From the NCBI GenBank assembly GCA_029855935.1, contig JAGSHN010000003.1, positions 1-61,690 of the forward strand: a DNA stretch of 61,690 bases, written 5' to 3'. The DNA comes from Candidatus Thorarchaeota archaeon (GTDB lineage: Archaea; Asgardarchaeota; Thorarchaeia; Thorarchaeales; Thorarchaeaceae). The notes under the pieces were generated by a model. It did no database searches and had not been told where the DNA came from. It saw only the letters and a program-made list of their open reading frames with translations. Positions 27,877-32,882 of the stretch are shown here, piece after piece. How positions within the stretch are numbered: position 1 is the stretch's first letter; each line of letters starts with the position of its first letter. A program made the translations under genes and the position numbers.

Positions 27877-28078
27877 CTGTCTTCTCACCGACTGTTCATG
27901 ATGCAATAACTCGCTCTTCTGCGTTGTGATTCTGCTGGCCCCTGACGTGATGACGTGCCCATCAGCAGTACCCCCGCCATCAATACTGACTGGATAGGTA
28001 CTCACATTGTTTCCCGACGGTGATATACCTATCATCACGCTTTTAGCGCCAGCAGACAGTCCCGACACGGGATTCAAC

Positions 28079-28549
28079 ATGACAGAGATTCAGAAGTCCT
28101 TTGAGCGCCTCATCAATCTCGCCATCCAGCGGGAGGTGGAGGCATACGAGTTCTACATGAAGGCCGCCGAACAGGCCGAGCTGACCTCCTCTGCTGAGCT
28201 GCTGCGCGAGCTGGCAAGACAGGAGGAGGGCCACAAGCGAAAGCTTGAGAGGGCTCTCTCAGAGGGCGTTGTGACGACGTTCGGGGATGTCTCCAATGCC
28301 GAGGAGGCGATCACAGTTCTGGACCGCTACCTTGTGGACGTCCCACTGCGACCCGACTCGTCACCACAGGACATTCTCGTTGTTGCCATCAAGCGCGAGC
28401 AGAATGCGCAGGCGTTCTATCAGCGTCTTGCAGAGATGGTATCTCATCCTGGGCACAAGGCAGTCTTCGAGACACTGGCGCACGAGGAGCAGACGCACAA
28501 GGAACGGCTTGAGCGCATCTATGATGACATCTTCCAGCCTGACCTGTGA
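28079..28549 (+). CDS. Rubrerythrin/ferritin-like diiron protein
   Basis: Two AI..E..A..FY / LA.EE..H motifs. Confidence 0.88.
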   Translation: MTEIQKSFERLINLAIQREVEAYEFYMKAAEQAELTSSAELLRELARQEEGHKRKLERALSEGVVTTFGDVSNAEEAITVLDRYLVDVPLRPDSSPQDILVVAIKREQNAQAFYQRLAEMVSHPGHKAVFETLAHEEQTHKERLERIYDDIFQPDL

Positions 28550-28779: not shown

Positions 28780-30060
28780 TCACTGTCGATGCAGCAGCGG
28801 GGCTGCGATGAAGGTGAGGCCTCTCTTTGTGAGCTCTCTGGCAGTCCTGTTCAGTGCATCGTGCTTGTCGAGGTAGTTGCGCGTCAGGTACGGCATCAGG
28901 CCCTTCTCGATGATCTCCTCCTTCGGGAGGAAGTACTCAAGGATGTCACTTGGATGCTCGCGTTTTGCATCGACCTCCGGGACTCCACCCTCGTGCTTCG
29001 CACTGATGTTCTTCACGTGGTCTGCGACCTCCAGCAGTTCCTCCAGTCTGTCATACGGCTGGCGGACAATGTGCTTGAAGGTCTCAGTGATGTGATGCTC
29101 TATCCTTACAACGTCCTCGAAGCCGAAGTTCTCACGGATGTACGCCGCCATCTCTATAGTTTCATTGTTGACACTGTTGCTCAGGTTGAAGCCGATCAGC
29201 GGGCTCGTGCCGTCCGGCCGGCTGAACAGCTTTGCCGTCATCAGTGTCCACAGGCACGCGTACGGATTGTCATTGCCCATAAAGACGCTGATCTTGAACT
29301 CCATATCGACACCTAGCTTGTGGAGCATATAGCCGAGCAGCACAGTTCCCGGGTTGATGTTGAGCACCTGCTTGATCCCGTACTTGGTGTAGTAGTAGAG
29401 ATACTCGTCCAGCCAGCGCAGAGCGAACCTGTTCGGCTGGCCCACGCCGCCAAAGTATCCGGTGATGGTGTCGGGACCACCAAGATGAACATTGACGGGC
29501 AGTCCGTCAGGACCCGGGTATGTCCCCTTGCTGTCAAGGGTCTCCACGTAGGATGAACCAGTGATCTGCATTGCCGCAGCAAAGGCGGGCAGGTCACCGT
29601 CCTCCTCCTGCTCCTTCATCTTGCGGACTCGGATGAACCGTCCCGGCATCAGCTCCTCTCGTTCGAGTGCGACCTTTGCCTCCTCTATCACCCACGGAAA
29701 GTACTGACATGCGCTTATCTCAAGGGTGACGGCAAACGAATCATCGAAGGTCATTGAGTCGGCCCTGTCACCAAGCACCTTTCTCCTGTAGTCCTGAACC
29801 GTTATGAATGCACCCTCATCACGGCGCTCCTGTAGCCAGTGGAGGTCCTTGATATACGACGGACTCTTCTTCTCCACCAGCGCCATCAGGTTGTCCAGCC
29901 TGCGCGCCTCGGCGGCCTGTCGGTTGATCTCCTCCACACCGCCATACTTGTCCACTATCTCGAGCAGATCGTTCACCAGAGGATTGTCCTCCCGAAGGAG
30001 GAACTCGTTTATCTCCTCCAGTCGCTGAGGGTCTATCCTGAGCTTCTCTCGGTCTACCAT
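28780..30060 (-). CDS. Uncharacterised soluble protein (probable TIM-barrel enzyme)
   Basis: 426-aa ORF with host-like codon use and enzyme-like Gly/His-rich motifs (NVHLGG, EHHITE, AKHEGG); family not recognised. Confidence 0.75.
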   Translation of the reverse strand: MVDREKLRIDPQRLEEINEFLLREDNPLVNDLLEIVDKYGGVEEINRQAAEARRLDNLMALVEKKSPSYIKDLHWLQERRDEGAFITVQDYRRKVLGDRADSMTFDDSFAVTLEISACQYFPWVIEEAKVALEREELMPGRFIRVRKMKEQEEDGDLPAFAAAMQITGSSYVETLDSKGTYPGPDGLPVNVHLGGPDTITGYFGGVGQPNRFALRWLDEYLYYYTKYGIKQVLNINPGTVLLGYMLHKLGVDMEFKISVFMGNDNPYACLWTLMTAKLFSRPDGTSPLIGFNLSNSVNNETIEMAAYIRENFGFEDVVRIEHHITETFKHIVRQPYDRLEELLEVADHVKNISAKHEGGVPEVDAKREHPSDILEYFLPKEEIIEKGLMPYLTRNYLDKHDALNRTARELTKRGLTFIAAPLLHRQ

Positions 30061-30257: not shown

Positions 30258-30824
30258 CTACCGCACCTCTATGTCCCCGCCAATCACTGGCAGGATAAGC
30301 CCGCGCAGCCGTGGTCCTATCAGTGCCGTGACGACTCCCCCGACAGTCACCTGTATCACGTTGATTGAGATGAGCTCTGCCAGTGCCGCCTCCGGTGTTA
30401 TCAGGAGGACTAGGGTCTCTCCGAGATAGTAGCCCAACAGCATCGCGATGGCGCCGAGGATGATTCCCACCACGTCCAATGCAGTGAGTTGGTCTACCCT
30501 CCTTGACCGCCACGAGAACAGGCCGACCATAAGACCCTCCGTCCCCTTGACCACCAGCGTGATGGGAGCGAAGAAGACGTAGCCTAGCCCCACATCGGCC
30601 ATCATCGAGCCCACGCCGCCCGCCACGAGTCCACCGACGGGGCCGAGGATCATCCCGCTTGTCATCACCAATATGTCCCCCACGTTCAGGTATCCGGTCG
30701 TGGTCGGGAATGGTATCACCAAGACCATAGTCGCTGCTGCAGTCAGTGCCGTCATCATGGCCACAGTGGCAAGGTACACAGGGTTCGTCGTCGTCCTTGT
30801 GGGTCGGTTCATCTCGATGTTCAT
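30258..30824 (-). CDS. ECF transporter S component (PdxU2/HmpT-like group)
   Basis: A.MTAL...AT, IP.P.T.GYLNVGD, GP..G..AGGVGS..AD, APITLVVKG.EG; about 6 TM segments. Confidence 0.85.
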   Translation of the reverse strand: MNIEMNRPTRTTTNPVYLATVAMMTALTAAATMVLVIPFPTTTGYLNVGDILVMTSGMILGPVGGLVAGGVGSMMADVGLGYVFFAPITLVVKGTEGLMVGLFSWRSRRVDQLTALDVVGIILGAIAMLLGYYLGETLVLLITPEAALAELISINVIQVTVGGVVTALIGPRLRGLILPVIGGDIEVR

Positions 30825-30855
30825 CCTGCTGTCACCGCCGCCTGTCGCATCAACA

Positions 30856-30885
30856 TAATATATAAGCCTAAGCCTATATATAGGC
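30856..30885. promoter_or_regulatory. Divergent TATA boxes overlapped by the perfect 14-bp palindrome GCCTATATATAGGC
   Basis: 66-bp intergenic region with TAATATATAAG (30856-30866) and the palindrome at 30872-30885, ending 5 bp before the ATG at 30891. Confidence 0.7.
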
Positions 30886-30890
30886 GGGCG

Positions 30891-32378
30891 ATGACGACCG
30901 ATGTGAGGGGCCTACTCTGCACGCAGTGTGGCAGACATGTCCCTGTGGAGTCTCGTGCCACTGGATGCCCGCGATGTGAGGGTGTTCTTCAGGTCGAGTA
31001 CGACATCGAGCGGCTCAGGGAGCGGGTCACACGTCACTCACTTGGCCGTGAAGAGCGTGGTGTCTGGCGGTTCCGGGACGTGCTACCTCTGGGGGCGCGT
31101 GCGCAACGCATCTCTCTAGGTGAGGGCGGTACGTACCTGCACCGATGTGACCGTCTGGCCACCAAGACAGGCGTGGGCAATCTCTTCCTGAAGGACGAGA
31201 CAATCAACCCCACGGGCTCCTTCATCGACCGTGGGATGGCGGTTGAGATCTCCGCAGTGAGGGACTGGGGCGTCCGTGAGGTACACTGCTGGTCTCTGGG
31301 GAACCTCGCTGTGTCCATGTCGGCGTATGCAGCACGTGCTGGTCTTCCTGCTGTGGTGACGATGTCTGAGAACGTCGCCTCTGACGTGGGGAAGTTCTAT
31401 CAGGTGCTGGCGTACGGTGCTCGTGTCACAAGGTCGGGGGAGTCATCAGATGCAGTGCTGGCGTACGGTGGTGGTGACGATCGTCACCATGTCGTGATGT
31501 CGACGAATCCCTTCTTTCTTGAGGGTGTGAAGACGACCGCCTATGAGGTGATGATGCAGCTGCAGTGGACTCCTCCCGACTGGGTCGTCGTGCCGATGGG
31601 CAGCGGAGGTCATATCACACAGGTCTGGAGGGCCGTGCTAGAGATGGAGCAGCTTGGGCTGCTCGACGACGGGCGCCCCCGTCTGATTGGCGTGCAGAAT
31701 ACCAGATGTGCCCCGATAGTAGAGGCCCTCCGCAATGGTCACGATGAGAGAATTGAGCCCTGCAGGGACCACTCATTCATCACACGCGACATCGGTGTCC
31801 GCAGTCCCCGCTGTGGTGTCTCAGCGCTCAGAGCGATACGCGAGTCCAATGGTACTGCCATAGCCGTGACAGACTCTCAGACGATCGACTCTGTCCGCAG
31901 TCTGGCACGTCTGGAGGGGGTCTTTGCAGAACCGTCGTCTGCAACGGTGATTGCTGCCGTTGGGCTGTTGGTTGATGATGGTGTGGTTGACCGTCAGGAC
32001 ATGGTTGTCTGTATGGTCACCGGGATGGGGCTGAAGGCACCGGAGATAACCCGCGACTTGGTGCGGGACGACACCAGACTGAGGACCCTTCTTCGCCGTG
32101 TTGAGGACTCCATCTCTCCGGCTGCGCTGGGTATGACGAAGCGGAGGATCCTAATACTTCTGGGGCAGGAACCATTGTACGGCTATGCCATCCGCAAGAG
32201 GCTTGAGTCGGAGTTCGGTGTCCGCATCTCTATCCCCAGTGTCTATCAACACCTCTCCGAGCTCGTGAGCCTTGGGCTGGTTGAGCGTGCAGGTATGACA
32301 CAGACCTACCAGGGCCGGGTGCGGAACTACTACATACTGACTGGACGGGGGCATGACCTACTGCTTGGCCTATCGTGA
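30891..32378 (+). CDS. Threonine-synthase-like (PLP fold II) domain lacking the catalytic Lys, fused to a C-terminal PadR-type wHTH
   Basis: N-terminal CxxC..CxxC, SLGEGGT, NPTGSF-I-DRG (K->I), PMGSGG, TGMGLK; C-terminal IL.LL...PLYGY.I...L......S.PSVYQHL.EL...GLV......R.YY.LT..G. Confidence 0.85.
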   Translation: MTTDVRGLLCTQCGRHVPVESRATGCPRCEGVLQVEYDIERLRERVTRHSLGREERGVWRFRDVLPLGARAQRISLGEGGTYLHRCDRLATKTGVGNLFLKDETINPTGSFIDRGMAVEISAVRDWGVREVHCWSLGNLAVSMSAYAARAGLPAVVTMSENVASDVGKFYQVLAYGARVTRSGESSDAVLAYGGGDDRHHVVMSTNPFFLEGVKTTAYEVMMQLQWTPPDWVVVPMGSGGHITQVWRAVLEMEQLGLLDDGRPRLIGVQNTRCAPIVEALRNGHDERIEPCRDHSFITRDIGVRSPRCGVSALRAIRESNGTAIAVTDSQTIDSVRSLARLEGVFAEPSSATVIAAVGLLVDDGVVDRQDMVVCMVTGMGLKAPEITRDLVRDDTRLRTLLRRVEDSISPAALGMTKRRILILLGQEPLYGYAIRKRLESEFGVRISIPSVYQHLSELVSLGLVERAGMTQTYQGRVRNYYILTGRGHDLLLGLS

Positions 32379-32480: not shown

Positions 32481-32882
32481 TTGGAGAAATTGGCGGACAA
32501 GAAATGGCTACAGACTGCTGACTGGAAATCCGAGAAGCATGTCCCTGTGATTGATGCGCCCGAGAAGGTCAAGGCTGGCGAGCTCATCAAGGTCGAGGTC
32601 TCCGTCGGCAAGGAGATACCGCATCCCAACAAGACAGAGCATCACATCAAGTGGATTGACCTGTTCTTCTGGCCTGATGGTGCGAAGTTCCCGATGGAGG
32701 TCGGTTACATCAGCTTTGACACGCACGGAGAGTCGACCGAGGGGCCTAACACCGGGCCACTACACTCGGAGCCGATGACGACCTTCGCGTTCCGCACGAC
32801 GGTCTCGGGGACGCTGATGGCCACGTCCTACTGCAACATTCACGGGCTCTGGAAGAGCGAGAAGTATCTCAAGGTAGAGTGA
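32481..32882 (+). CDS. sor: Superoxide reductase (neelaredoxin, class II)
   Basis: EKHVP, IPHPN..EHHIKWI, SYCNIHGLW. Confidence 0.93.
   Translation: MEKLADKKWLQTADWKSEKHVPVIDAPEKVKAGELIKVEVSVGKEIPHPNKTEHHIKWIDLFFWPDGAKFPMEVGYISFDTHGESTEGPNTGPLHSEPMTTFAFRTTVSGTLMATSYCNIHGLWKSEKYLKVE

Follow-up and report, generated by a model that had tools for sequence, protein, structure and literature searches.

A lysine-less threonine synthase fold joined to a PadR winged helix: a candidate vitamin B6-responsive regulator in Asgard and other archaea

The closest described relatives in design to the locus reported here are one-component regulators in which an enzyme-like domain is joined to a winged helix-turn-helix (wHTH). 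ThiR, an archaeal vitamin regulator, consists of a ThiN-like domain and a wHTH, and the bacterial regulator PdxR, from the MocR subfamily of GntR proteins, has an N-terminal GntR wHTH followed by a fold-type I aminotransferase-like domain that keeps the lysine for pyridoxal 5'-phosphate (PLP). Classical PadR proteins begin with the wHTH, continue into a dimerisation helix or domain and bind their ligands at the dimer interface. PdxR acts locally on pdxST and vitamin B6 transporter genes, in many cases through a divergent promoter, and also controls its own gene (PMC5320631, PMC9997740), and RbkR, an archaeal one-component regulator made of a pathway-related enzyme domain, riboflavin kinase, and a wHTH, acts at palindromic operators of vitamin synthesis and energy-coupling factor (ECF) transporter genes (PMC5397151). 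Here we analysed a 61,690-nucleotide stretch of a Candidatus Thorarchaeota archaeon (contig JAGSHN010000003.1, positions 1 to 61,690; hereafter the window), in which a gene that resembles threonine synthase (ThrC) genes diverges from the gene of an ECF S-component. Our comparisons indicate that this gene most likely encodes a one-component transcription factor and not an enzyme, and that its product probably represses locally in response to a B6 vitamer bound without a covalent link, which would make it a functional analogue of PdxR but not a member of the PdxR family.

The likeness to PdxR lies in the fusion of an enzyme-derived PLP-binding domain (predicted to bind in the archaeal case) to a wHTH and in a similar locus context, whereas the archaeal protein has a C-terminal wHTH of the PadR type and a ThrC-like presumed sensor of fold-type II, with Ile or Leu in place of the lysine. 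The regulator is set apart from the PdxR family by its wHTH family, its PLP fold type and the missing lysine and does not belong to it; the two are analogues that are not homologous as whole proteins. With RbkR and ThiR the regulator shares the design, but enzyme fold, wHTH family and vitamin are all different; moreover, RbkR keeps its kinase activity and is an inferred activator, while the regulator of the window is without the catalytic residue and its operator position suggests repression. As in PadR and LmrR, its wHTH matches PF03551 and a dimer on an inverted repeat is expected, but it differs from classical PadR proteins in carrying the wHTH at the C-terminus, with a 400-residue enzyme-like domain as presumed sensor and dimer interface.

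The regulator gene (30891-32378, forward strand) is an open reading frame of 495 codons encoding a zinc ribbon, a lysine-less ThrC-like (PALP) domain, a helical linker and a PadR wHTH. The N-terminal zinc ribbon (CxxC...CxxC, about residues 8-32; 30912-30986, forward strand) has invariant C10, C13 and C29 and a nearly invariant C26 among 55 diverse family members. Pfam found only two domains: the fold-type II PALP domain PF00291, our predicted sensor, at residues 74-378 (31110-32024, forward strand; E 1.9e-60), and PadR PF03551 at residues 420-490 (32148-32360, forward strand; E 8e-13, 48.6 bits against a cut-off of 27, profile positions 1-72 of 75), with no domain after it. An AlphaFold2 model built from 55 diverse relatives reached a mean predicted local distance difference test score (pLDDT) of 91 and a predicted template modelling score of 0.81, and showed the wHTH (residues 415-494) as three helices and a beta-hairpin wing, closed by one more helix. 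The best solved relatives of the PLP domain are threonine synthases (2D1F, 2ZSJ and 1UIM). All coordinates in a first-pass annotation made from the sequence alone proved right, and all the motifs listed there were recovered, namely NPTGSFIDRG with ATC at 31224-31226, WSLGN (134-138), PMGSGG (235-240), TGMGLK (377-382, the TGxGLK motif) and the PadR wHTH, and the combination of PALP and PadR was present in all 120 closest homologues.

The codon ATC at 31224-31226 (forward strand) places Ile112 at the position of the PLP Schiff-base lysine; in the HMMER alignment this residue stands opposite the lysine in NPTGSFKDRG of the ThrC enzymes from M. tuberculosis and Aquifex. The lysine column of the 120 closest homologues (42-100% identity; from Thor-, Loki-, Hod-, Odin-, Sif- and Bathyarchaeia) holds I in 106, L in 14 and K in none. 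We then defined a subfamily, through an exhaustive search of 50%-identity cluster representatives, by the presence of the wHTH together with a non-basic residue at this site; all 57 representatives carry L, I, V, M, T, N or another such residue and none carries K, and the lysine is kept in 75 of 75 ThrC-like relatives without a wHTH. The loss that the first-pass annotation had noticed in a single protein is, by these alignments, real and old. The subfamily keeps its PLP-contact motifs near-invariant (D113, R114, N138, the G237-x-G239 phosphate loop, E347-P348 and T377-G-x-G-L-K382), while position 209, that of the canonical substrate-phosphate Arg (a role given to it in the T. thermophilus structures), is Phe here and F, L, Y or I in the subfamily (Arg in 28 of 75 canonical relatives), and S135 and T136 of the substrate loop are degenerate. 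These patterns mean that selection acts on the cofactor site and not on the catalytic and substrate apparatus.

E211, K214 and T215 are conserved in the subfamily, and the wHTH group has residues of its own, among them Tyr170 (in 52 of 57 members), Leu139 and Phe209. The alteration of the substrate loop to WSLGN, also part of the first-pass annotation, stood for the window protein but not as a family trait: the loop consensus across the family, C-G/A-S/T-T-G-N, differs little from the canonical ASTGN, and WSLGN is an outlier belonging to the clade of the window protein. A broader statement, that all ThrC-wHTH fusions lack the lysine, was rejected: a second ThrC-PadR subfamily (loci L130, L132, L134-L138, L147, L148 and L058) carries Arg or Lys at the Schiff-base position, within NPTNSF[RK]DR or NPTGSYRDR. 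Its contexts are looser, with a NiFe hydrogenase, an S-component 0.2-3 kb downstream or, at L058, a divergent Lys-bearing ThrC gene, and the operator core described below, CCTATATATAGG, was absent from these loci. A pattern search with the lysine site left free, covering a single genome for each prokaryote species, returned mainly canonical ThrC proteins, and fusions made up only 6 of its 80 loci.

Database sources give the name threonine synthase to this protein family, and among the 120 closest homologues every named entry carried it except two called hypothetical protein. The regulator nevertheless scored below every NCBIfam ThrC equivalog cut-off: 291.5 against 303 for NF006050, 274.6 against 421 for NF004170 (PRK05638) and 165.7 against 167.1 for TIGR00260. 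The "threonine synthase" equivalog model NF004170 covers residues 10-491 of the regulator, wHTH included, which goes some way to explain why the misannotation is universal; this model seems to have been built on fusion proteins and may be spreading the error. The genome itself, in turn, contains two ThrC paralogues with NPTGSFKDR and a zinc ribbon and no wHTH (G000:C21:26695-27858, reverse strand, and G000:C27:56097-57212, forward strand), to which the regulator is 34-38% identical. With these two paralogues present, the regulator gene need not supply ThrC activity; one of them is presumably the genuine enzyme. Taken against ThrC (TIGR00260, PRK05638, PRK08197), the regulator thus has the same fold and the zinc ribbon of the archaeal-type paralogues, but it is without the Schiff-base lysine, its substrate site is altered, a wHTH has been added and its scores fall under the family cut-offs; on these comparisons it is best classed as an atypical PadR protein outside ThrC.

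On the other side of a 66-bp intergenic region (30825-30890) lies the predicted target, a 188-residue ECF S-component (30258-30824, reverse strand) of the PdxU/PdxU2(HmpT) family (PF07155/COG4720; PF07155 E 2.7e-32, 112.5 bits), which has the size of a six-helix S-component and whose ATG is preceded by the Shine-Dalgarno-like sequence GGTGA. Its only sequence match in the PDB was 4HZU chain S, which is HmpT/PdxU2 (E 1.7e-15), and its NCBIfam matches were all sub-threshold. The HmpT pocket residues E41, H84, Q87, Y120, N140 and Q143 correspond to D50, K93, E96, Y132, N155 and Q158. Membership of PF07155/COG4720 thus upheld the link to PdxU2/HmpT made in the first-pass annotation, but the GYxNxGD motif on which it had been based did not, as the window protein reads GYLNVGD where HmpT/PdxU2 reads GIVTLCE. 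PF07155/COG4720 is the family of the predicted B6 S-component PdxU and of the experimentally supported PdxU2/HmpT, although specificities are hard to predict within large S-component families (PMC9997740); pyridoxamine was found bound to HmpT by mass spectrometry (PMC4860826), and the riboflavin S-component RibU belongs to another family, COG3601 (PMC5397151). The S-component is a distant relative of HmpT with three of six pocket residues retained, a pattern that fits a B6 vitamer as candidate substrate; the genome also holds the shared EcfAA'T module, encoded on another contig (C8) as EcfA-EcfA'-EcfT (ABC_tran, ABC_tran and CbiQ).

To follow this arrangement across genomes, loci were gathered from the contigs of database homologues, 300 other Asgard genomes, one genome per prokaryote species and targeted regions, and 53 members of the Lys-less subfamily, which span Asgard classes, Bathyarchaeia and Nitrososphaeria, were scored after removal of identical proteins. 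The regulator gene diverges from a homologous PF07155 S-component gene at 48 of these loci, including ones from Bathyarchaeia, Nitrososphaerota and Nitrosopumilales. Two more have pdxS-pdxT next to the regulator and no S-component beside it, in an operon (L048) or divergently (L049): genome G007 has the order regulator-pdxS-pdxT on one strand, and in G041 the regulator diverges from pdxS-pdxT. Pfam matches of these neighbours are SOR_SNZ (E 1e-97 to 1e-101) and SNO (E 1e-50 to 1e-58). The partnership with the S-component seen in the window is therefore conserved.

The intergenic region contains a perfect 14-bp palindrome, GCCTATATATAGGC (30872-30885), proposed as the operator in the first-pass annotation, and a second TATA-like box, ATATATAA (30858-30865), whose centre lies 17 bp to the left of the palindrome centre at a fixed spacing. 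Of the 53 regulators, 44 have the core CCTATATATAGG in the 100 nt upstream when up to one mismatch is tolerated (29 of the 44 exact), and elsewhere in these loci, roughly 505 kb of sequence, the same stringency gave only two further matches. Together, 43 unique upstream regions give the consensus ATATATAA, five or six bases, then AGCCTATATATAGGc, with the ATATATAA box kept at 80% or more, and the palindrome centre most often lies 17 nt from the regulator start codon. The Bathyarchaeia locus has an identical arrangement and the Nitrososphaeria loci have one-mismatch versions, so that conservation of the palindrome extends over two archaeal phyla. In the 2.97-Mb genome (55.7% GC) GCCTATATATAGGC occurs once, even with one mismatch allowed, and TATATATA only 8 times, so the palindrome is neither a chance occurrence nor a generic promoter element of the organism. 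The genome-wide search revealed no second operator site; a one-mismatch 12-mer at C6:92783 was considered and discarded, as it precedes the TBP gene and resembles an ordinary strong TATA box. With no other site in the genome, the regulon would be local, limited to the two divergent genes and perhaps the one downstream of the S-component gene.

The arrangement of operator half-sites differs between lineages. The pdxST-linked regulators have CCTATATATAGA and CCTCTAAATATAGG in G041 and CCTAAATATATTGG in G007. At the Hodarchaeales-type loci L008, L009, L038 and L150 the two TATA-like boxes merge into a larger perfect palindrome, CTATATAAGTAATTACTTATATAG, which suggests that in some lineages the operator extends over both boxes. 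At L139 and L144 the operator is a 10-nt inverted repeat, AATATATAGG - 6 nt - CCTATATATT, in place of a single palindrome.

PdxS, PdxT and PdxJ were not found in the window genome (97% complete), and this lack of a recognisable de novo PLP route agrees with the B6 reading. A search of 301 Asgard genomes detected PdxS in 46, and the family to which the source of the window belongs had it in 0 of 76, which suggests that B6 auxotrophy is widespread in Asgard archaea. Among 55 Asgard genomes with a regulator of the subfamily type (full length, E 1e-88 or better), PdxS occurred only in G007 and G041, the same two in which the regulator adjoins pdxST; as the genomes are related and partly incomplete, this distribution is a pattern and not a statistic.

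From these data we propose the following mechanism. The ThrC-derived domain, in which the residues for the PLP phosphate and ring are kept, would bind a B6 vitamer, probably PLP, reversibly and non-covalently, and would dimerise as threonine synthases do, bringing two C-terminal PadR wHTHs onto GCCTATATATAGGC. The palindrome would sit inside two overlapping divergent promoters, between the ATATATAA box and the regulator start codon and, read on the other strand, as a TATA-like element facing the S-component gene. We infer that ATATATAA is the TATA box of the regulator gene; its centre, 29-34 nt before the start codon, would place transcription start only slightly ahead of the ATG, by a few bases, leaving the palindrome over the stretch from TATA to start site. 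Several archaeal repressors bind between these two points and block polymerase recruitment. With ample B6, the ligand-bound dimer would stand in the way of TBP/TFB or RNA polymerase, because the palindrome lies within both promoters, and would repress the PdxU-type importer gene together with its own gene, so that one bound dimer could close both promoters; when B6 is scarce, the dimer would leave the operator. In the few relatives that make PLP, the regulator gene lies at pdxS-pdxT instead. That the B6-bound form is the repressor is suggested by the logic of vitamin homeostasis, and the opposite sign would also be allowed; classical PadR proteins are released from DNA by their ligands.

Four other explanations were weighed against this one. 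The regulator could work in the manner of GabR, with PLP held in place as a cofactor and the signal coming from an amino compound such as O-phosphohomoserine, threonine or some other amine, which would react with the free PLP aldehyde to an external aldimine whose adduct changes DNA binding. External aldimines can be trapped by PLP enzymes mutated to lack the lysine, bacterial GabR acts through such an adduct, and the near-canonical substrate loop of most members, together with the conserved E211, K214 and T215, would suit this mode; yet the targets are a PdxU-type importer or pdxST and not amino-acid genes, the substrate-phosphate Arg position is hydrophobic with S135/T136 degenerate, and the window protein itself has WSLGN, so we regard it as an unlikely alternative, if one to keep in mind. 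We also doubt, and slightly more so, that the protein regulates the S-component locally but senses something other than B6, with an uncharacterised member of PF07155 carrying that same compound, be it a different cofactor or a precursor. Half of the HmpT pocket has changed, NCBIfam gives nothing over threshold and specificity in such large families is hard to predict (PMC9997740), but the sensor domain descends from a PLP enzyme and retains its PLP-contact motifs, pdxS-pdxT adjoins the regulator in two lineages with a related operator, and the presence of PdxS and the S-component arrangement are complementary.

We give little credence to a ligand-independent transcription factor in which the dead ThrC domain is a dimerisation scaffold for the PadR wHTH and senses nothing. 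The PadR part consists of the wHTH and lacks the C-terminal helix or domain that normally serves dimerisation, a task that must fall to the enzyme-like domain; a mere scaffold, however, would not be expected to hold the phosphate loop, TGxGLK, N138 and D113/R114 near-invariant across clusters that are only 30-50% identical. A still working enzyme with a DNA-binding tail, threonine synthase or a related PLP enzyme as the databases have it, is very improbable: the name itself and the alignment of PRK05638 along the whole length speak for it, against the absence of the Schiff-base lysine throughout the subfamily, scores under every ThrC equivalog cut-off and two intact ThrC paralogues in the genome. 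All the computational checks proposed in the first-pass annotation favoured its pseudoenzyme B6 sensor, which drew support from the loss of the lysine, synteny, the palindrome, the ThrC paralogues and the lack of a recognisable PLP route.

Several observations weigh against a B6-responsive repressor and temper our preference for it. The operator is AT-rich and overlaps TATA elements, and its conservation may partly reflect promoter function. In the S-component only Y, N and Q of the six HmpT pocket residues are identical, the other three being changed (E to D, H to K and Q to E). The adjacency of pdxST is known from two genomes only, and three of the 53 loci (Odin L011, L143 and L145) have neither neighbour nor operator. 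The loci compared come from related genomes and are not statistically independent. Finally, no PdxK-type kinase passed the cut-off in the window genome, which yielded nothing beyond a PfkB-family kinase and an NAD(P)HX dehydratase, so that salvage after import has no evident route.

The remaining genes around the locus add context. Downstream of the S-component lies a gene for a hypothetical protein of about 426 residues (28780-30060, reverse strand; the likely start is an internal Met of a 453-aa open reading frame), possibly in an operon with it. The protein is 62-85% identical in Thor and Loki loci, where it is next to the S-component, and occurs as a single copy, 64-85% identical, across 172 of 301 Asgard genomes. 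It had no Pfam, NCBIfam or PDB sequence match and no usable match in a protein atlas sequence search, and its AlphaFold2 model was poor (pLDDT 58.6), with weak and generic TIM-barrel matches in Foldseek and the atlas (MTHFR, E 5e-4, template modelling score 0.3-0.45). We did not assign it to the B6 regulon, since in other genomes it occurs elsewhere than the regulator locus, also in PdxS-positive ones, and its phyletic pattern tracks neither PdxS nor the regulator; that it supplies the missing salvage step after import is a doubtful proposition. A rubrerythrin-like gene (28007-28549, forward strand) and a desulfoferrodoxin gene (32481-32882, forward strand) flank the locus, with positions kept in Thor and Loki contigs (L005, L006 and L010), a conserved neighbourhood of predicted oxidative-stress genes.

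Full-text literature searches, a survey of the B6 pathway, a survey of archaeal fusions and the RbkR paper contained no description of this family, and no archaeal B6 regulator was found in the literature searched. On balance we lean towards a family that is pan-archaeal (Asgard, Bathyarchaeia and Nitrososphaeria) and that would represent both the missing archaeal B6 regulator and the first case of a fold-type II PLP pseudoenzyme at the base of a transcription factor, in which PLP would be sensed with no Schiff base involved. Its operator is almost unchanged across phyla, and its distribution would imply that most Asgard archaea have no PLP synthesis and rely on a regulated ECF importer. If true, it would fill a gap as ThiR did for B1 and RbkR for B2, would offer a clean natural case of an enzyme turned into a sensor by the loss of one catalytic residue, and would correct the systematic misannotation of the family as threonine synthase. 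An operator of 12-14 bp and a soluble protein make the hypothesis testable in vitro, and the B6 auxotrophy that it implies would bear on the syntrophy and cultivation of Asgard archaea.

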